Shown here: positions 21,810-29,911 of the stretch, piece by piece
Layout of the letters: the number at the start of each line of letters is the position of its first letter
Position numbering within the stretch: the stretch's first letter is position 1
NCBI GenBank assembly: GCA_018396535.1
Contig: JAGTQC010000001.1
Span: 192,001-256,000, forward strand
Length of the DNA stretch: 64,000 nt
Direction of reading: 5' to 3'
Source of the DNA: Candidatus Bathyarchaeota archaeon
GTDB lineage: Archaea > Thermoproteota > CALKCG01 > B24 > DRYS01
Translations under genes and position numbers: made by a program
The notes under the pieces: model-generated
Database searches by the model: none
The model's input: only the letters and a program-made list of their open reading frames with translations
What the model was told of the DNA's origin: nothing

Positions 21810-23087
21810 TCAACGCTCATATCCTATAACAAGTATATCACTATTGAAATCCGTCATCTTAATGATAGCCTCATCCCCTTTAACCTCAACCCTAGGTTTA
21901 AATATCCTCCTACCTTCAAGTTCTATACCCTCCCATCTATAAGCTGCCCCATCTATCCTCAACCCTACGCTACAATTATACGGTGTATAGACTACTATCT
22001 TACCCCTACCTATCGAAACCCTTATTTCATCAGTCCTATTTACCAATCTATCGTTCGCAGGTTCTATATCGAATAGATCGTATCTTTCGAATACCCATCT
22101 AGCGAAGGCAGCGTCGAAGGCTCCTGGAAATTTCAACGCTACGATCCAATGATATGGCTGACCGTATACATCGCTATACCTATACACCCCACCCTTATAC
22201 CACAGCCATACACCATGTGCCCCGTATGCTATACCTGCTTTAGCCCCTGATAGAATGCTCTGCCATATAGCTCTCCTCACATCTATATAGGTAAACCTAC
22301 CATATCTATCGTACATCCTTATAGATCCTATACCCTCATAGCATGGCTCCCCGTTAACTATAGGCTTCTTTACAGGTATATTATAGAATCTCTGAGCAAG
22401 CTCGTAAGCTAGATGCTGCCTATCCCTTCTATGACCAGACTGATACATGTAGAAATCGTAGTTAGGCGATTTCAATATTCTATCAGGTATATCGTATAAA
22501 CCCCCGGATAGATGCATAGTTGTTAGAGAGTTTGGAGCCTCCCTCTTAACCACATCCATAGCCCTCGTATAATACTCTATAGATTCCTCTGTTTCGAAAT
22601 TCGTATCACCACTCACGATGAATATAGGATTATATTTACCAAACCTCTCAGCTATATAACATACGTAATCCTCGACCTTCTCCACCGGTATAATCCTACT
22701 CGGATCTATCCTAGAACCCCAGGTACCCCTAACATAGTTACACCATAAGACTACGAGAGCAGGTATGAAACCCATATCCACAGCTATCTCTATCATCTTC
22801 TCAGCTCTATCGAAGTATGCCTCATTCCTCTTATCGAAATCCCATCCCCCACCGGGTGTAGGCTGAAATGGATCCATATAGTTCTCAGAATAGCTTCTAT
22901 CCCATTGCGGTAGGATGTTGATCTGTATAGCATTGAAGCCTTGCATAAACCTATACTCTAGATAATACCTCCACTCATCGTAGCTCGGGTTTGTGAAAGC
23001 ACTCCAGCATGTATCTGCTAAGTAGAAGAATCTCTCTCCATCCGTAAGGAAGTAATCCCTAGTACTAGAGATGTATAGTCTAGGCAT
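21810..23087 (-). CDS. DUF4038 / GH140 apiosidase-like glycoside hydrolase
   Basis: FFYLADTCW, QGFNAIQ, SGD, YQSGH, NGEPCYEG, SGAKAGIAYGAHGVW. Confidence 0.85.
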   Translation of the reverse strand: MPRLYISSTRDYFLTDGERFFYLADTCWSAFTNPSYDEWRYYLEYRFMQGFNAIQINILPQWDRSYSENYMDPFQPTPGGGWDFDKRNEAYFDRAEKMIEIAVDMGFIPALVVLWCNYVRGTWGSRIDPSRIIPVEKVEDYVCYIAERFGKYNPIFIVSGDTNFETEESIEYYTRAMDVVKREAPNSLTTMHLSGGLYDIPDRILKSPNYDFYMYQSGHRRDRQHLAYELAQRFYNIPVKKPIVNGEPCYEGIGSIRMYDRYGRFTYIDVRRAIWQSILSGAKAGIAYGAHGVWLWYKGGVYRYSDVYGQPYHWIVALKFPGAFDAAFARWVFERYDLFDIEPANDRLVNRTDEIRVSIGRGKIVVYTPYNCSVGLRIDGAAYRWEGIELEGRRIFKPRVEVKGDEAIIKMTDFNSDILVIGYER

Positions 23088-23105
23088 AAACTCGATACCC
23101 CCATG

Positions 23106-24746
23106 CTAGGTATACCTATGAACCTTTATCATACGAATCTTAGGCTTATCTTCGAAGTATACCCATGATCCATGCCCTGTTTCATCACCGTTAAGCCTCC
23201 TATCCCTAACCCACTTCCCATCCCTAAATACACCTTCATCAACCCATAGAATCTCTACGTTAGATGAGAAACCATCTAGGGGGAGGAATCTTAGTAGGAA
23301 GTTAACACCTACAGCTATATATGTATCGTCATCGATAGCTATTATCAAACCTGCGGGTGGCGTTCTAGCTTCGTATGGGAGTCCAGGCCATACCATCCTA
23401 GCCTTCTCCACTAACTCCTTCGCGAAGCTTATCTGCAGCTGGTAGTCTCCAAGCCTATATATAAAACCTCTTACACGTACTCTAATCCTCCATATAGATA
23501 ATGTATGAGTATAACCGTAGGATCCATCATCTACGAACCCGATTATCCTACCAGTACCCTGATACCTAGCTATCAACGGTATCATACCTAAGAGTAACCT
23601 ATAGCTATCTGCTAAGGGGTGCTTCTCAGGCTCGGCTATATCATCTATACCGAATGGTGAAAAACCTATACCATTATACCGGCCTAGAGCATGGAATACA
23701 TACGATGCACTTCTCTCATCCCTCACAGTCTCGGGTATAAGTAGAGGATTATCGAGTCTAGCATACTCATCGCATACAGAGCTGAAATCCTCCCTATAGA
23801 TATCCGGTGCTATCAAATCTATATTTGGAGCTGCTACACGCCAAACCTCTAGCATACGTGATATAGGACCGCCGCTTGGGTAATCTCCAGGTCTACCATC
23901 CTCATACATGTAAGCGCTAGGTCCGAGCCATGCATTCACATACATAGGTATAGGATACTCAGATTTACCCGCCGCGGCTACGCTATCTACGTAGCGTGCG
24001 AAATACCAAGCCATGAAAACTTCGTCAGCACCTGAACCGAATACTTCCCTCCATACACCTGAAGTCCTTCCCCCCTCCCTCTTCCATATACATCTCAGGT
24101 ATGGGTTAAGCTTCTCTTCGTTAGCTCTAAGATACTCTATCAACTCCTCTGGTACAGGTTGGTTGAAGTATTCCTCAGCTAACGGATTATAGTCTCTAGA
24201 TGATCCTAGGATGCCTACCTCATTCTCTACCTGCACCATTATAACGGTATGTTTCCCACCATCAACCTCGCGTATATGTCTCATTAACGTTTTAAACGCA
24301 CGTGAATCAGCTTCTAGAGCATTCCTACTGAAGCATGTGATAGAATCTAAACCCCTACCCATAGAGTCTTGAGCACGTGGAAATCTTCTAAAATCGGTTT
24401 TCACCCATTCAGGGGTGTAAGATGAGATTGCGTTCTTCCATGTACCAAACCATAGGAAGATAACCTTTAAACCATACCTACGAGCCCTATCTATAAGCCC
24501 ATCTACAAGGTGGAAATCGAACCACCCCTCCTCAGGTTCTATAAGCTCCCATGTAACCGGTAGTAGAACTGTATTCAATCCGAGGGATACTAGACGGGGC
24601 CATACCGGCTCCATATACTCTAAGCTAGATGAGGATGAATTATGCACCTCTCCACCAAGGATTATAAACGGCTTCCCATCGACCATCAGCTGCTTTGCTC
24701 CATCAAATCTACGGAGGTGAGGTATACCTTCATCCAGATTCGTCAT
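23106..24746 (-). CDS. GH35-like beta-galactosidase with DUF5597 C-terminus
   Basis: GGEVHNSSSS, WELIEPEEG, LWFGTWKN, VQVENE, YPSGGP, APDIY, IPE, RRLNGDE. Confidence 0.9.
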   Translation of the reverse strand: MTNLDEGIPHLRRFDGAKQLMVDGKPFIILGGEVHNSSSSSLEYMEPVWPRLVSLGLNTVLLPVTWELIEPEEGWFDFHLVDGLIDRARRYGLKVIFLWFGTWKNAISSYTPEWVKTDFRRFPRAQDSMGRGLDSITCFSRNALEADSRAFKTLMRHIREVDGGKHTVIMVQVENEVGILGSSRDYNPLAEEYFNQPVPEELIEYLRANEEKLNPYLRCIWKREGGRTSGVWREVFGSGADEVFMAWYFARYVDSVAAAGKSEYPIPMYVNAWLGPSAYMYEDGRPGDYPSGGPISRMLEVWRVAAPNIDLIAPDIYREDFSSVCDEYARLDNPLLIPETVRDERSASYVFHALGRYNGIGFSPFGIDDIAEPEKHPLADSYRLLLGMIPLIARYQGTGRIIGFVDDGSYGYTHTLSIWRIRVRVRGFIYRLGDYQLQISFAKELVEKARMVWPGLPYEARTPPAGLIIAIDDDTYIAVGVNFLLRFLPLDGFSSNVEILWVDEGVFRDGKWVRDRRLNGDETGHGSWVYFEDKPKIRMIKVHRYT

Positions 24747-24905
24747 GGATCAACCTACCTGAAGCTTTCATTCGATAGTATACCGATATAAGAGTTATCA
24801 TGACCGCATAGAGATCTAAGCTTATAACATAGCATCAAGCTACCGCCATTACGATAAGCTATGAGATATAGGATTCAATCTACCGTAAATCCTGATCATA
24901 ATCTC

Positions 24906-24920
24906 GAAAAACTTAAATAT
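24906..24920 (+). promoter_or_regulatory. Archaeal BRE/TATA promoter for the riboswitch leader
   Basis: gaaaaacttaaatat lies about 25-30 nt upstream of the aptamer's first G. Confidence 0.65.
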
Positions 24921-24944
24921 AGGGGCTGCTAACCCTCTCCACTG

Positions 24945-25003
24945 GGCGATGGGGCCCGCCTTTAACCGCCTAGGCTACCGCTCCTAGGCTGATGGCTCCT
25001 ACT
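24945..25003 (+). ncRNA. Fluoride riboswitch (crcB motif)
   Basis: GGCGATGGGGCCCGCC-TTT-AACCGCC-(stem-loop)-GGCTGATGGCTCCTAC fits the consensus GGCGAUGRRGYYCGCC...AACYGC...GCUGAUGRCYYCUAC; P1 GGCG/CGCC; pseudoknot GGGGC/GCTCC. Confidence 0.93.
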
Positions 25004-25035
25004 CTCTATACACGGCGGTTAGAGGTGTAGTCTGT

Positions 25036-25908
25036 TTGAGGGTATTATCGATCTCGTTGGATCTGGCTAGAAGCTTTATCGATATAGATGCTATACTAGG
25101 CTATATACTCGAACGTCAGAATGATGATGGAGGCTATACATTCTGTAGAGGTACAGATTCTAGTGCTGAAGATACATTCTACGCTATAGAAACACTTAGG
25201 ATCTTAGGAGTTAAGCCTAGGAATATCGATAAGACTATAAGCTTCCTGAAGAATCTCCAGCATAGCGATGGAGGTTTCGATTCTATTAAGATAGCGTACT
25301 ATGTCGTTAAATCTCTATCTATCCTAGGCTCTAATCTACCGAGATCTACATATCGTTTAATAGATGAGGTTAAGGATATTATCTCCAGCTTGGGGGAGCT
25401 ATCTGAAGTATACGTCGAGATAACATCCGAGTTAGAGTATCTACACCTAGCTGTAGAGTTATCTAGTATGCTTGGGATAGGGGTTGATCGAGATAATCTT
25501 ATAGATGGTGTTTTAAAGTTTAAAAATAGCGATGGGAGTTTTGGTAGCGTTAAACTTTCTAGGATAGCATCTACATCGTATGCCCTAGATATCCTTAGGA
25601 TAGCAGGCTATAGGATTGATACTCTCGCAGATACTCTGTTATGGGTTAGAAGATGCGAATCACCCTATGGAGGGTTTGGGTATGAACCTGGAGCTAAGCC
25701 TATAAACCTAGAGGATACATACTTCGGGTTGAAAATCCTGGAAGCTTTAGGCGAGAAGCCTAGATACCCGATCGAAACTCTAAGATTCATAGCTAAGCTT
25801 CAGAATATTAACGGAGGGTTCCGTAGATCTATATTCCTAGGTATATCAGATCTAGAATCTACGTATAGAGCTGTATACTCGGCTGCGGTTACATTCCCAT
25901 ACCTCTAG
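25036..25908 (+). CDS. Prenyltransferase/squalene-oxidase repeat protein (COG1689-like), riboswitch-controlled
   Basis: Repeated QNDDGGY, QHSDGGF, KNSDGSF, ESPYGGF, QNINGGF with TF/YxAV motifs; SD GAGGTG 8 nt before the TTG. Confidence 0.85.
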   Translation: MRVLSISLDLARSFIDIDAILGYILERQNDDGGYTFCRGTDSSAEDTFYAIETLRILGVKPRNIDKTISFLKNLQHSDGGFDSIKIAYYVVKSLSILGSNLPRSTYRLIDEVKDIISSLGELSEVYVEITSELEYLHLAVELSSMLGIGVDRDNLIDGVLKFKNSDGSFGSVKLSRIASTSYALDILRIAGYRIDTLADTLLWVRRCESPYGGFGYEPGAKPINLEDTYFGLKILEALGEKPRYPIETLRFIAKLQNINGGFRRSIFLGISDLESTYRAVYSAAVTFPYL

Positions 25909-25923
25909 GTGGAGACTAGATAA

Positions 25924-26583
25924 TTGTCCCATCGTATAATACCGGATCCCGTTATGAAGGTTATAGTAAACGGTCTACTAGATTCATCTTGGGGTATGTT
26001 TCGTAGGAGTACGATAGTAAGGCTGACGGTCGATGGAGATCAGGTTAAGATAGGTATAGGTGAGGGGTGCATCCATGGATGGGAGGTTGATATTATTAGA
26101 TCAAACCCTTTGAAGAGTAGATGGATGGAGATAGATCCACCAGAGCTAACGATAGTTAAAGGTATAAAGTATATTCCTGAAAGGATGGGATCAGGTATGC
26201 CTAGAGGTTTACTACCTATCTACGATACATACGTATACATATTCGTCAGCAGCAGTAATCGGATGATCTACCCAGCTTATAGATGCTTCGATATAAACCT
26301 CGGTGAGAGAAGGGTTATATCGATTATAAGTCCTAAAACATTGATTAAAGATATCGTAGAGACGATACACCCAATCTTCCCAAAGGAGAGGTATAGGAGG
26401 CGGGTGAATAACGTAGAGGTATCTACTGAATCTCTTAAAGAATTCTTCGAAGAAGGCTACGGCGTCGGGGTTCTAAAAGAGAATCCTATTAAAGCTAAAG
26501 GTAAGGTAAATGCTTTAACCCTATTTGGATCATATGATGTAAGATATATAATCGAGAACGTGAAGCTTAGAAGATTGAGTTGA
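25924..26583 (+). CDS. Hypothetical soluble protein, probably the second gene of the riboswitch unit
   Basis: 219-aa ORF 15 bp after the previous stop, GGTGGAG SD-like element; no TM segment, no recognised family. Confidence 0.7.
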   Translation: MSHRIIPDPVMKVIVNGLLDSSWGMFRRSTIVRLTVDGDQVKIGIGEGCIHGWEVDIIRSNPLKSRWMEIDPPELTIVKGIKYIPERMGSGMPRGLLPIYDTYVYIFVSSSNRMIYPAYRCFDINLGERRVISIISPKTLIKDIVETIHPIFPKERYRRRVNNVEVSTESLKEFFEEGYGVGVLKENPIKAKGKVNALTLFGSYDVRYIIENVKLRRLS

Positions 26584-26596
26584 AGTTTTCGAGTAT

Positions 26597-27727
26597 CTAC
26601 CGATAAGCTCTTATAGGATAAACTCCTATCTTCTTCGCATATTCTACCTCACACCTAAGGTTTTCGGGAGGTATACCTGCATAGGTCTCTCCACCATTAT
26701 CGAATATATATCCTCCAACCGGAGCTGCCGTATATATGCATCTCTCAACCTCCTTCTTAATCGCTTCGATATCACCATTAACTAGAACCCTCCAGTTTGC
26801 ATTACCATTGAATACCACCCTACCTTTAAAAGCTTCAGCTAGTATACCGAGATCATTCTCTACACCTACATCTACGGAATCCACCTTATAGATATCGGTT
26901 ATTATATCTGTTATATGATCCATATGGGAGTCCATATGTAATCCTCTATGCCTTCTACCATACCTCTCATACAACCTTAGGTTGTATGGTAGAGTAAACT
27001 TCTCATACATCCTACGACTTAGATAACCTGAATGATCGTCTGAAAGACTTATAGAATCCATATCCCCACCGATCCTCTCATAACGATACCTCTGTAATAC
27101 GTTATACGTCTCCTCAAGTTTCCTTAGAAGTTTATGCATTTCATCAGGATACCTATACAGCCATGTATAGAGTCTCTGAGGGCCTAGTAGAGATCCAGCT
27201 GCCGATACTGGTGGATGAATCTGTAATCCACCCTTACCTACAGGTATATCACCATACTCACTCCTAACAAATCTTTCAAACTCCTCAAGCCTACTATAAT
27301 ATGCTTGAATACCTGGATGATCATAAGGATCAGGTACCTCGAGTTTATCGATATCCTCGAGATCCCTTACACATGGGATTATCCATGGACTCCTCCAAGG
27401 ATAACTCTCATCAGGCATAGCTATACTACAACCGAAAACAATACCTTCAGCTATCGAACCTATATCTAGATGAACACCTACACCAGCTACATCATCCTGA
27501 AGCCATTCGAACCGCCATTTCAAACCCATAATCTGAACATCAACCATAACTCTGAAACTAGAATAGTACTCCATCAAAGTATAGCCGAAAAGCCAAGCAT
27601 AATAGGGGCCGCCGACACCTATAACCACAGGAACTCTATCAGGCTCCTCAAACCTATAGACAGCTTCTATCCTCTCACGATTCCTCTCAGCAATCCTAGA
27701 ATACTTTGAGTAATCGAATACTACCAT
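26597..27727 (-). CDS. Uroporphyrinogen decarboxylase/MtaA-CmuA superfamily TIM-barrel protein
   Basis: EPDRVPV, LS...YEKF.LPY, LHMD, GN, GGYIF, IPPEN. Confidence 0.85.
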   Translation of the reverse strand: MVVFDYSKYSRIAERNRERIEAVYRFEEPDRVPVVIGVGGPYYAWLFGYTLMEYYSSFRVMVDVQIMGLKWRFEWLQDDVAGVGVHLDIGSIAEGIVFGCSIAMPDESYPWRSPWIIPCVRDLEDIDKLEVPDPYDHPGIQAYYSRLEEFERFVRSEYGDIPVGKGGLQIHPPVSAAGSLLGPQRLYTWLYRYPDEMHKLLRKLEETYNVLQRYRYERIGGDMDSISLSDDHSGYLSRRMYEKFTLPYNLRLYERYGRRHRGLHMDSHMDHITDIITDIYKVDSVDVGVENDLGILAEAFKGRVVFNGNANWRVLVNGDIEAIKKEVERCIYTAAPVGGYIFDNGGETYAGIPPENLRCEVEYAKKIGVYPIRAYR

Positions 27728-27808: not shown

Positions 27809-29911
27809 CTACATTATCGATAACGTTGTTGATACCTGATATATGAATCCTAGTATTACTGCTGGTCCTGTTGCTGCAGCCATACCTATAGCGAATGGCA
27901 TAGCTACATCCTCGTATAGCTTAGCTCCACCAATCCTCATAACAACTATTTTAGCAACATACGCTACCATGGACGGTACTAGTACATTAGGTATAAGCAT
28001 ACCGAAACCTAAAGCTACACCTCCAGGGTTGAGAGGAAACCATGGATACTTCGCATGTAGAGCATAGACTATAGATACTATCGCTGCACCTATAGAGAAT
28101 AGTATCCACTGTGAGGCTCTAGGTCCGCCGCCACCTAGAGAGCCTCTCCAATACTCCCCTACCTCTGTTATACATGCATACGTGGGTGCTCTCTGATAGT
28201 AGTTATGAGGAGCTCCGGTATAGTTGAACGCTGATAGATTTAACGCTCCGAAACTACACCAAAGAGGTAAGAATGCGAATGCGGCCACGGTAATACCTAC
28301 GATTATAGCTATCACCGTCGCGATCAGTATATGCTTAGAATGCAAACCTTCAAGAGATGCTATCTTGTAAGACTCTAGAAGAGTAGCGGCAGGTGCTGCT
28401 CTTATAACAGTAAAGTACCATGGATAATCGCTTCTCAATACAAGATACCTAGATTGTACATTCCTTATGAAGAATGGTGACATAGGATCTGCGACAAACC
28501 ACTGCCTAAACGTATAAGTCCAGTTATGAGCCCAATAATTATCGTTCATGAAATCCAAGACTAATCCATACTCACCTGCAACTCTAGCTCTACACATAAG
28601 CCATAAAGCATACATGATATAATTTATAAACCCCCATACAACTGGTAGATTCCCTAAACTCGCATACCACCATAAAGCAACAGAGATGGTCATGAAGAAT
28701 ATTAAAGCTAGTAACTGCCAACGATATCTTAAAGGCTCCCTCGCCTCGATCTCAGATGGTGCTCTTCCTAGAAGAGCCTTTACACTATTCACGAGTTCTC
28801 CTCTAAAAGATATGAAGATAGGCGCGAATATTATAGCATACGCTGCACCAAAGCTTATGAAAGATACCGCACCCCATGTGAGAACCCATCTTTGCATATT
28901 AGGACCCATCCAACCGCGAAACATATTCGAATGCTGATAGCCTAGGCCAGATGTACCAGCACTCTGAGGCTCCCAGTATCCTAGCCAAGACATCATAGGC
29001 CACCAAACCCAGAAGAACACTACTGAAGTGACTATGTAGCTGAATAGCGTCTTTACAGGAACTAGGAATGCTGCTCCAATCCAGAAAGCTTCGAAATTAA
29101 AGCTCATAGGAGCACATGGAACTATTACATACGGCGTTAGATCTATACCTAAACTACCAGGATACATCATAGATACTGTTAGTCCTAGTCCTGGTAGTGT
29201 CCATGCCCAGTATGGGTATATTGCTAGGAATCCTATTAGTAATCCTAGCCATAGCCATACGTTTTGGAATAGTCTTGTTCCTCCATCAACCTTCTCATAA
29301 GCCATATCTATAAGCTTAGCAGCTGCAGTAGCATGTGGGAATGGCAGTGCTTCTATATCTATCCACTGCCTCCTCCATAGTGTTGCGAAGAATGCGAACA
29401 TAAGATAGTATGGTATTAATCTAGCTGTATGGAATAGTAGTGCAGGCATCCACTCAGCCCATGGTACTGGTCCACCATACATCCAAGACTCCCATAGCTT
29501 ATCGTTGAACGGATCGGGGCCCCACTGCCAATGAGCAGGTTTAAGATACTCTAGATTCCATCGGTGGAAGGCTGGAATCTGACGAGCAGTACCCATCATA
29601 GTAAATATCTCTAATATACCGTGTTGACTTGGTATAAGCCATGAAACCCATATCATAGATAATATGATTACAAGCTCATGCTTCGATACACCAACCCTAG
29701 ATAGTAGAGTCCCGAGGACAGAGATAACGAGAGGCCAAAACAATACGAAACTCATATTAGCTGGCCAAGCGTTTATCCATGAATCACCTGTCAACCCCCA
29801 AAGGGTTCCTCCTACTGTAAACAACGCTACGAACTCCATTAAGACTACTATGATAGCTGTTAGGAGCGCACCAGCAAGGTAGATGATGGGACGTACTCGA
29901 GCTTCTTCCAT
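27809..29911 (-). CDS. Polytopic membrane protein, DUF6785/DUF6784 (OPT-like peptide transporter) family
   Basis: Many TM helices; VPWAEW, RRQWIDIEALPFP, RVAGE.G, PWFPLNPGG, K.VVMRIGG.KLY...PFAIG. Confidence 0.8.
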   Translation of the reverse strand: MEEARVRPIIYLAGALLTAIIVVLMEFVALFTVGGTLWGLTGDSWINAWPANMSFVLFWPLVISVLGTLLSRVGVSKHELVIILSMIWVSWLIPSQHGILEIFTMMGTARQIPAFHRWNLEYLKPAHWQWGPDPFNDKLWESWMYGGPVPWAEWMPALLFHTARLIPYYLMFAFFATLWRRQWIDIEALPFPHATAAAKLIDMAYEKVDGGTRLFQNVWLWLGLLIGFLAIYPYWAWTLPGLGLTVSMMYPGSLGIDLTPYVIVPCAPMSFNFEAFWIGAAFLVPVKTLFSYIVTSVVFFWVWWPMMSWLGYWEPQSAGTSGLGYQHSNMFRGWMGPNMQRWVLTWGAVSFISFGAAYAIIFAPIFISFRGELVNSVKALLGRAPSEIEAREPLRYRWQLLALIFFMTISVALWWYASLGNLPVVWGFINYIMYALWLMCRARVAGEYGLVLDFMNDNYWAHNWTYTFRQWFVADPMSPFFIRNVQSRYLVLRSDYPWYFTVIRAAPAATLLESYKIASLEGLHSKHILIATVIAIIVGITVAAFAFLPLWCSFGALNLSAFNYTGAPHNYYQRAPTYACITEVGEYWRGSLGGGGPRASQWILFSIGAAIVSIVYALHAKYPWFPLNPGGVALGFGMLIPNVLVPSMVAYVAKIVVMRIGGAKLYEDVAMPFAIGMAAATGPAVILGFIYQVSTTLSIM

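Follow-up and report, generated by a model that had tools for sequence, protein, structure and literature searches.

A fluoride riboswitch in a Bathyarchaeota genome followed by two soluble proteins, a toroid and a beta-rich orphan, and not by a recognisable exporter

How do archaea without a recognisable fluoride exporter cope with fluoride? The question is raised by a unit at positions 24,945 to 26,583 of a 64,000-nucleotide stretch of DNA from Candidatus Bathyarchaeota archaeon (assembly GCA_018396535.1, contig JAGTQC010000001.1, positions 192,001 to 256,000 of the forward strand), which was analysed as a whole and is called the window below. Fluoride resistance is explained almost wholly by the Fluc and CLC-F exporters (FEX in eukaryotes), together with a few induced enzymes. 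Riboswitch units of the crcB motif head crcB/Fluc or eriC-F/CLC-F exporter genes, and the other named cargo comprises mutS, K+ or Cl- transport and formate hydrogen lyase (Weinberg 2010 PMC2864571; PMC7266159, PMC5473149). In the window, by contrast, a fluoride aptamer precedes genes for two soluble proteins without similarity to Fluc, to CLC-F or to this other cargo, and a known exporter was not found in the assembly; the only detectable fluoride sensor of the cell appears to be wired to these two proteins and not to an exporter. We lean towards the reading that the unit is a working fluoride-ON riboswitch with a soluble two-protein cargo, not a channel, and that the two proteins probably form a cytoplasmic complex which lessens fluoride damage. 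The evidence for the regulatory part of this reading is good; what it says on biochemistry is guesswork.

In our numbering of genomes (G), contigs (C) and loci (L) the window corresponds to G000:C1:192001-256000, where G000 is a 93% complete metagenome-assembled genome (MAG) of 1.41 Mb on 14 contigs. The features of the unit, in order of position in the window, are as follows; ORF stands for open reading frame, SD for Shine-Dalgarno and BRE for transcription factor B recognition element.

24905 to 24921, + strand: putative BRE/TATA-like promoter element CGAAAAAC-TTAAATATA, recognised by eye, about 20 nt upstream of the aptamer
24936 to 25008, + strand: fluoride riboswitch aptamer (crcB motif, RF01734) predicted by cmscan, with helix P1 at 24945-24948/24957-24960
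25014 to 25035, + strand: predicted expression platform, made up of the anti-aptamer/SD segment GGCGGTTAGAGGTG (25014-25027), in which GAGGTG at 25022-25027 is the SD box, and an 8-nt spacer, then TTG
25036 to 25908, + strand: ORF1 (P0001), 290 aa, acidic soluble alpha/alpha-toroid protein with prenyltransferase/squalene-oxidase repeats (PF00432, AlphaFold2, Foldseek)
25908 to 25914, + strand: SD sequence GGTGGAG of ORF2, read from the sequence, 9 nt before TTG
25924 to 26583, + strand: ORF2 (P0002), 219 aa, basic and soluble protein with mostly beta structure, from an orphan family of very few members, with no sequence match in Pfam, NCBIfam or PDB
26597 to 27727, - strand: convergent URO-D/MtaA-like gene that ends the unit

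The two ORFs thus follow the aptamer on the same strand, ORF1 before ORF2, each with a TTG start. This layout agrees with the initial annotation, made from the letters of the window, which had described a consensus fluoride aptamer just downstream of a TATA/BRE, then a prenyltransferase-repeat gene and an unknown 219-aa gene, and a convergent gene closing the unit. Only the start of the unit needs a small correction, since position 24945 is the first base of helix P1 and the Rfam match begins 9 nt earlier.

The aptamer itself leaves little doubt. The RF01734 covariance model (Rfam cmscan) matches positions 24936-25008 of the window on the forward strand over its full length (model 1-64 of 64) with 52.9 bits and an E value of 7.8e-12, the gathering score being 34 bits, and the homologous aptamers across related loci reach 45-55 bits. 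All strongly conserved consensus letters of the model are kept. The alignment contains the P1 helix GGCG/CGCC, a P2 helix of 7 bp and the conserved elements GAUGG, AACCGCC and GGCUGAUG..CUCCUAC. Where the P1 loop pairs with the 3' tail to form the pseudoknot, the sequence is GGGGC/GCUCC as against GGAGU/ACUCC in the consensus, both sides having changed with the pairing kept. Judged from its sequence this is a genuine fluoride riboswitch aptamer of the RF01734 class, as had been proposed, and it is the only fluoride aptamer in the whole G000 assembly. The crcB/Fluc and eriC-F/CLC-F riboswitch units have the same aptamer class with all conserved features in common, and the same ON logic, in which the ligand raises downstream expression, would be expected.

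The cargo is where the unit departs from these systems. At a threshold of E <= 1 neither CrcB (PF02537) nor CLC (PF00654) has a match anywhere in the 1.41 Mb of G000, so that the absence of crcB and CLC-F genes noted earlier for the 64 kb holds for the assembly as a whole; ORF1 and ORF2 themselves have no match to CrcB (PF02537). Transmembrane segments were found in neither protein, the highest mean Kyte-Doolittle hydropathy over 19 residues being 1.39 in ORF1 and 0.87 in ORF2, in line with the earlier description of both products as lacking transmembrane helices.

How fluoride binding could be coupled to expression is suggested by the leader, which is likely to act as a translational ON switch. 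The segment GGCGGTTAGAGGTG is complementary to aptamer positions 24957-24970 over 14 contiguous pairs, two of them G-U; on the aptamer side the pairing takes in P1 (3' strand), the linker and P2 (5' strand). When the aptamer core was paired with the 55 nt that follow it, the most stable duplex reached -35.3 kcal/mol (z -4.2), a value equalled by 1 of 300 shuffles. The arrangement recurs in relatives: base pairing between the SD box and the P1 3' strand is seen in all 11 loci with a P0002-type (ORF2-type) gene. In the ten related loci of this subtype the box reads GGUGGG or GAGGUG and the P1 strand opposite it CCCACC (CGCC in G000), and several of these ten have a further box, GCGGUU(U)AA, that is complementary to UUAACCGC. 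The sequence of P1 varies between loci, and the complementarity of the SD box therefore tracks the aptamer sequence; from this conserved complementarity between SD box and P1 we infer that the platform couples aptamer folding to ORF1 expression. In the absence of fluoride, the P1 3' strand and the adjoining linker would pair with the SD region of ORF1 and translation would be blocked, and in the presence of fluoride the aptamer and its pseudoknot would be locked, the ribosome-binding site freed and ORF1 translated; it is because the complementarity is conserved in relatives that this switching step is proposed. ORF2, which has its own SD sequence on the same transcript, would presumably be made together with ORF1. 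No T-rich terminator was found after the aptamer, and a scan for promoters and terminators of bacterial type gave nothing above chance.

The first gene of the cargo belongs to a well-known fold. ORF1 matches PF00432 (Prenyltrans) in Pfam with an E value of 1.6e-20, and its AlphaFold2 model (pLDDT 91.4, pTM 0.90) has 13 helices. The best Foldseek matches are the beta subunits of RabGGTase and GGTase-III (E 3e-7, TM-score 0.6-0.7, about 20% identity; top matches 6o60_B and 3dss_B with probability 1.00), followed by class II terpene cyclases and ribophorin II. With the prenyltransferase beta subunits (3dss_B, 6j7x_B) and the class II terpene cyclases ORF1 shares the alpha/alpha-toroid fold and the repeats (profile E 1.6e-15), and the beta subunits, which form heterodimers with a second subunit, are also reminiscent of the toroid-partner pair described below. 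However, at 290 aa ORF1 is shorter than these solved relatives (320-630 aa), and it has neither their zinc-ligand Cys/His, nor their DxDD motif, nor a helical alpha-subunit partner encoded next to it. The zinc-ligand Cys of RabGGTase beta (PDV-CYSWW segment) falls, when aligned by HMMER, on the Glu of the LEDxYF motif of the toroid family; in prenyltransferase beta the catalytic zinc has Asp, Cys and His as ligands. No Cys or His is invariant or even 90% conserved among the 20 aligned family members, and the DxDD motif is absent from ORF1, with no such motif conserved in the family alignment. Most of the invariant residues belong to the structural repeat motif; the others lie in a family-specific C-terminal segment, NGGFRRSxxLGISxxEST, and at W203 and E208, and an acidic loop around S131/E132/E134, which is a low-confidence part of the AlphaFold2 model, is invariant as well. 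The partner encoded next to ORF1 (the adjacent gene was the one examined) is mostly beta and without a Pfam match, as against the helical-hairpin alpha subunit of prenyltransferases. By its residues and motifs ORF1 is predicted to be neither a canonical prenyltransferase beta subunit nor a class II terpene cyclase.

The fold of ORF1 nevertheless has to be weighed as a clue to function, since the toroid could be an isoprenoid or lipid enzyme or carrier, with the unit remodelling the membrane or the lipid-carrier pool under fluoride stress; this might, for example, bypass a fluoride-inhibited diphosphate-dependent step or reduce the permeation of hydrogen fluoride. All of the nearest toroid folds (RabGGTase beta, GGTase-III beta, squalene-hopene cyclase and MstE) have isoprenoid diphosphates or polyprenes as ligands, Mg-dependent pyrophosphate enzymes are generally known to be inhibited by fluoride, and among the toroid loci described below the gene of a BacA/UppP undecaprenyl-diphosphatase (L087:3977-4786) follows one toroid gene and that of an inorganic pyrophosphatase (L041:1174-1704, in an Acidiferrales MAG) another. 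We nonetheless consider this explanation quite improbable. The two neighbours are single cases, the replacement of the zinc-ligand Cys by Glu, the lack of an invariant Cys or His and the missing DxDD motif speak against a lipid enzyme of the known kinds, and so does the absence of a membrane segment from ORF1; moreover, an alpha-subunit-like partner is not encoded next to it, and the partners that toroids do have come from three unrelated families.

The second protein, ORF2, could not be attached to any described family. Its TTG start is backed by conserved N-terminal residues upstream of the first ATG. The relatives of ORF2 amount to 27 clusters at 90% identity, almost all of them from Bathyarchaeia, and among 1.84 billion representative proteins there were 11 relatives and no fused forms. 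The AlphaFold2 model is of good quality (pLDDT 88.4, pTM 0.87) and mostly beta, and a Foldseek search against the PDB gave no match (best E 0.17), a search of the ESM Atlas no usable match, and VIA-align no chain with Z >= 2 among 48,161. The empty VIA-align result is odd, as models without relatives typically reach a best Z of 7-8; either the fold is very uncommon or the comparison failed for technical reasons. Both sides of the deep split in the family retain R28, E54, K82, Y119, R130, H149, Y157, E165 and D205. A Cys-His-Asp triad (C121, H149, D123/D143) was considered and rejected, C121 not being conserved in distant members. ORF2 was likewise rejected as a divergent member of DUF6062 (PF19538), a family that takes its place in other toroid units (hhalign probability 0.07%, no Pfam match); it contains two Cys, as against the paired CxxC...C...CxxC...CxxH motifs of DUF6062. 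A relationship to the second alternative partner, of about 155 aa, was rejected as well (hhalign probability <1%).

The association of the three elements is conserved in the closest relatives. An aptamer of 51-55 bits, a toroid of about 295 aa and an ORF2 homologue follow each other in all six close-relative loci with enough flank (L003, L008-L011, L016), and ten further aptamer-toroid-ORF2 loci came from the named genome collection (L021-L028, L035, L091). In five related genomes the aptamers of this unit are the sole fluoride aptamers; CrcB is present in none of these five and a 591-aa CLC in one. In G000 and its five close relatives the toroid-ORF2 unit is thus the only fluoride-regulated function that was detected. 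G009, of the same genus and 91% complete, has neither aptamer nor toroid nor ORF2, and since all three are missing together the unit seems to have been gained or lost as a block. Among the less saturated pairs, the median pairwise dN/dS (ratio of nonsynonymous to synonymous substitution rates) comes to 0.09 in the toroid gene and 0.15 in ORF2, so that purifying selection acts on both and neither is decaying. G034 carries two aptamer-toroid-ORF2 units, L011 (G034:C14) and L016 (G034:C10), with one broken gene each: the toroid of L011 lies in three frames, and ORF2 of L016 is split by a stop codon or a frameshift. This could be due to assembly error or to reciprocal decay of duplicates.

Beyond these relatives the toroid and the aptamer belong together over a wide range of archaea. 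At E <= 1e-5 the toroid family has 646 relatives, which are annotated only as prenyltransferase/squalene oxidase repeat-containing. Loci were collected by a pattern scan with one genome per species, in which the best 80 of 167 ORF1 relatives were kept, and 67 of these 80 loci have a same-strand fluoride aptamer (Rfam) upstream of the toroid gene, in most cases ending 0-60 nt before its start codon. The lineages represented are Bathyarchaeia, Methanocellales, Brockarchaeota, Nitrososphaerota, other Thermoproteota and, among the Asgard archaea, Freyarchaeota and Jordarchaeia. Among the aptamer-less loci, one is truncated where its contig stops, three belong to bacterial MAGs and two to Archaeoglobi, and three have a gene for a CDF cation (metal) efflux transporter downstream of the toroid (L078, L085, L095). 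In most of the 80 loci, then, the toroid follows a fluoride sensor, and this in archaeal lineages that mostly lack both known exporter families.

The gene that directly follows the toroid is more variable: it encodes a Cys-rich DUF6062 protein in 26 loci, a member of the family of about 155 aa without a Pfam match in 15, and a member of the ORF2 family in 11. These three partner families are unrelated (profile-profile probability <1%). The aptamer-toroid-DUF6062 units have the same aptamer, the same toroid family, the same two-gene layout and the same tight junction as the unit in the window, and differ in their partner, which is the Cys-rich DUF6062 there and the unrelated beta-rich ORF2 family (hhalign <1%) here. 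In a quick maximum-likelihood tree of the toroids (IQ-TREE, midpoint root) 9 of the 10 toroids with an ORF2-type partner form one clade, nested in a group (SH-aLRT 99) that also holds DUF6062-partnered and Methanocellales members, and because of this nesting the ORF2-type partner looks like a later replacement.

That toroid and ORF2 work together is suggested by a second gene order. Divergent toroid genes in G005, G006, G008, G260, G284, G332 and a Thermofilales MAG are immediately preceded by distant homologues of ORF2 (25-27% identity), and the reading frames overlap by 8-20 nt at the junctions examined (coordinates include G005:C1:672964-674471, G260:C5:42000-43491 and L099:2298-3918). The isoelectric points are 5.2 for ORF1 and 9.5 for ORF2, with family medians of 6.1 and 9.4. 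That the two proteins form a complex is suggested by their being neighbours in either order, by the overlap of their frames and by their opposite charge.

From these data the acidic toroid and the basic, beta-rich ORF2 protein would most likely join as a cytoplasmic complex, in which the toroid would be the invariable subunit of a fluoride-regulated unit present in several archaeal lineages and the partner would be exchangeable (DUF6062, the family of about 155 aa or the ORF2 family). The cavity of the toroid may take up a ligand, which could be a metal-fluoride species or else the substrate, phosphorylated or isoprenoid, of a step that fluoride blocks; any export would be left to other carriers. 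It is tempting to go further and to regard toroid and exchangeable small partner as a new, non-channel class of fluoride defence inside the cytoplasm, based on capture at a hard-metal site or on shielding or bypassing a fluoride-poisoned phosphoryl transfer; we put this forward tentatively, and think it rather doubtful. If it were true, the 219-aa partner would represent a new fold with a new activity. In any case a testable function can now be offered for the toroid family with its several hundred members, for DUF6062 and for the orphan ORF2 family.

Another view of an exporter-less fluoride unit is that it is a relic, still switched by fluoride and no longer useful after the loss of a neighbouring crcB unit, as the initial annotation had itself allowed for in case homologous operons always include crcB. 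This is not what was found: none of 40 genomes with a toroid has a CrcB match, and 5 of them have CLC, in each case an ORF of about 590 aa. As a baseline for the phylum an even sample of 400 genomes was used, in which CrcB occurs in 64, concentrated in a few families, and the toroid in 66, of which 59 are without CrcB; in view of this baseline the absence of CrcB is not special to G000 or to toroid carriers. Mutual exclusion of toroid and CrcB was rejected, since both are present in 7 genomes against about 10.6 expected and they are adjacent in one genus. In that genus (G069, G220, G280) the toroid unit lies directly upstream of the crcB unit, the order in L120 (G069:C4:77000-81500), L121 and L122 being an aptamer of about 51 bits, the toroid gene, a 252-aa gene in the partner position and a 163-aa gene, then an aptamer of about 37 bits, crcB and a 103-aa gene. 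Such a neighbourhood is what a relic could have descended from, and a similar one is found in Thermococcus kodakarensis, where riboswitch-controlled TK0513 (288 aa according to the supplement) precedes crcB (PMC4247193). However, the adjacent crcB of the tandem loci has its own second aptamer, so that the two appear to be separate riboswitch units able to sit side by side, and the intact, selected ORF1 and ORF2 and the conserved aptamer and platform in the window speak against decay. A relic is for these reasons effectively excluded.

The T. kodakarensis locus had been described in the initial annotation as a crcB-containing operon headed by the riboswitch. The order is right, in that the riboswitch lies upstream of TK0513 and crcB (TK0514) follows directly, but crcB has its own transcription start there (PMC4247193). 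The first gene after the riboswitch is thus not crcB but a protein of the same length class as the toroid, and the arrangement resembles the tandem toroid and crcB units; in G000, by contrast, no crcB was found and the second gene is ORF2. Membership of TK0513 in the toroid family could not be verified: in a homologue search seeded with an Archaeoglobi toroid there was no named Thermococcales protein among the 120 matches listed.

Several observations weigh against our reading of the unit as a fluoride switch with a soluble, protective cargo. As to the switch, the duplex z-scores of most related loci lie between -1.5 and -3.3 and are thus modestly better than those of shuffles, and the 14-bp helix is missing from the minimum free energy fold of the leader, in which a local hairpin masks the SD box instead (z -1.6, not significant); either structure is predicted to hide the SD sequence when the aptamer is not locked. 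As to the cargo, the case for linking ORF1 and ORF2 to fluoride is one of guilt by association. Neither a catalytic nor an anion-binding motif can be recognised in the toroid, its acidic character fits poorly with direct binding of an anion, and stoichiometric sequestration of fluoride by a protein at toxic concentrations is implausible. No fluoride aptamer was detected in front of the reversed-order pairs, even at E <= 1, nor anywhere in the genome of G005, so that the complex may serve a process which is not specific to fluoride. As to the missing exporter, a crcB gene may have been missed in a 93% complete MAG. Finally, a transporter of the major facilitator superfamily (MFS), an MFS_1 protein of about 400 aa, is encoded in 11 of the 80 toroid loci, and G000 has an orthologue with 54% and 41% identity to operon MFS genes, which is unlinked to the unit (contig 12); in view of these two findings the term non-export may not hold at the level of the whole cell. 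The MFS_1 genes referred to are:

G000:C12:720-1886, - strand: MFS_1 gene of the G000 genome (locus L105)
L025:4507-5724: MFS_1 gene
L092:1546-2745: MFS_1 gene
L097:1544-2743: MFS_1 gene
L039:5118-6332: MFS_1 gene

The last point leads to the most serious of the alternatives, namely that the pair is a cytoplasmic accessory which regulates, feeds or protects an unrecognised MFS fluoride exporter, and that the system is one of export after all. In 8 loci the MFS_1 gene comes after the unit and shares its strand; one of them is L025, where the MFS_1 gene begins 7 nt beyond the ORF2-type gene. In two Asgard loci the MFS_1 gene has a fluoride aptamer of its own directly in front. A homologue is present in all five close relatives of G000. 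At a cut-off of E <= 1e-40, which may pool paralogues of other substrates, 190 of the 400 genomes in the phylum sample have a member of the MFS family, and among the 64 genomes with CrcB only 5 do, where about 30 would be expected. However, this anticorrelation comes largely from one CrcB-rich family of 57 genomes and is for that reason only a lead, the MFS family is far commoner than the toroid (190 against 66 genomes), and no MFS gene lies within 3 kb in 69 of the 80 toroid loci. The G000 gene stands behind the housekeeping genes aIF2-gamma and PIN, and has no aptamer at E <= 1. We regard the accessory role as unlikely, and more credible than the lipid explanation above, and continue to prefer a soluble cytoplasmic complex with a function of its own. 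The MFS subfamily is nonetheless a candidate unrecognised fluoride exporter, and as a by-product of this analysis it may represent a third fluoride exporter type.

The riboswitch class is well known, and the toroid cargo is undescribed in the searchable literature, which did not include Baker 2012 and Speed 2018: nothing was found in it that links a fluoride riboswitch to prenyltransferase-repeat proteins, DUF6062 or Bathyarchaeota. The initial annotation had mentioned a listing of COG1689-type genes beside such riboswitches, which could not be verified; nothing joining COG1689 with a fluoride riboswitch was found in the same literature, and the first 200 supplementary files of Weinberg 2010 (PMC2864571) mention neither COG1689 nor prenyltransferase. 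New here are the ORF2-type partner, its pairing with toroids in reversed order and its lack of a detectable structural relative.

Some of the toroid loci have a richer composition than the two genes of the window, and operons of more than two genes occur in many lineages. At L031:836-918 a fluoride aptamer lies between the toroid and DUF6062 genes; DUF6062 can have its own switch. In ten loci (L040, L048-L050, L052, L055, L068, L074, L077, L081) the toroid-DUF6062 pair is followed by small families of about 110 aa or about 160 aa without a Pfam match, and in seven loci the partner of about 155 aa is followed by a family of about 156 aa with two transmembrane segments. A PAS_10 protein is encoded downstream of the toroid in L047 and L069. 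In L070 an aptamer (L070:931-1006) and then the gene of a P-type ATPase (E1-E2 ATPase + HAD, L070:1089-2795) lie upstream of the toroid's own aptamer, and a related ATPase (L025:84-2114) is found upstream of the unit in L025.

The surroundings of the unit in the window are of another kind. At 21810-24746 and 27809-29911, both on the minus strand, it is flanked by an apiosidase-like gene, a GH35 beta-galactosidase gene with DUF5597, which lies upstream and is divergent from it, and the gene of a 700-aa DUF6785/DUF6784/OPT-like membrane protein; none of these flanking glycoside-hydrolase and membrane-protein genes shares the strand of the unit.

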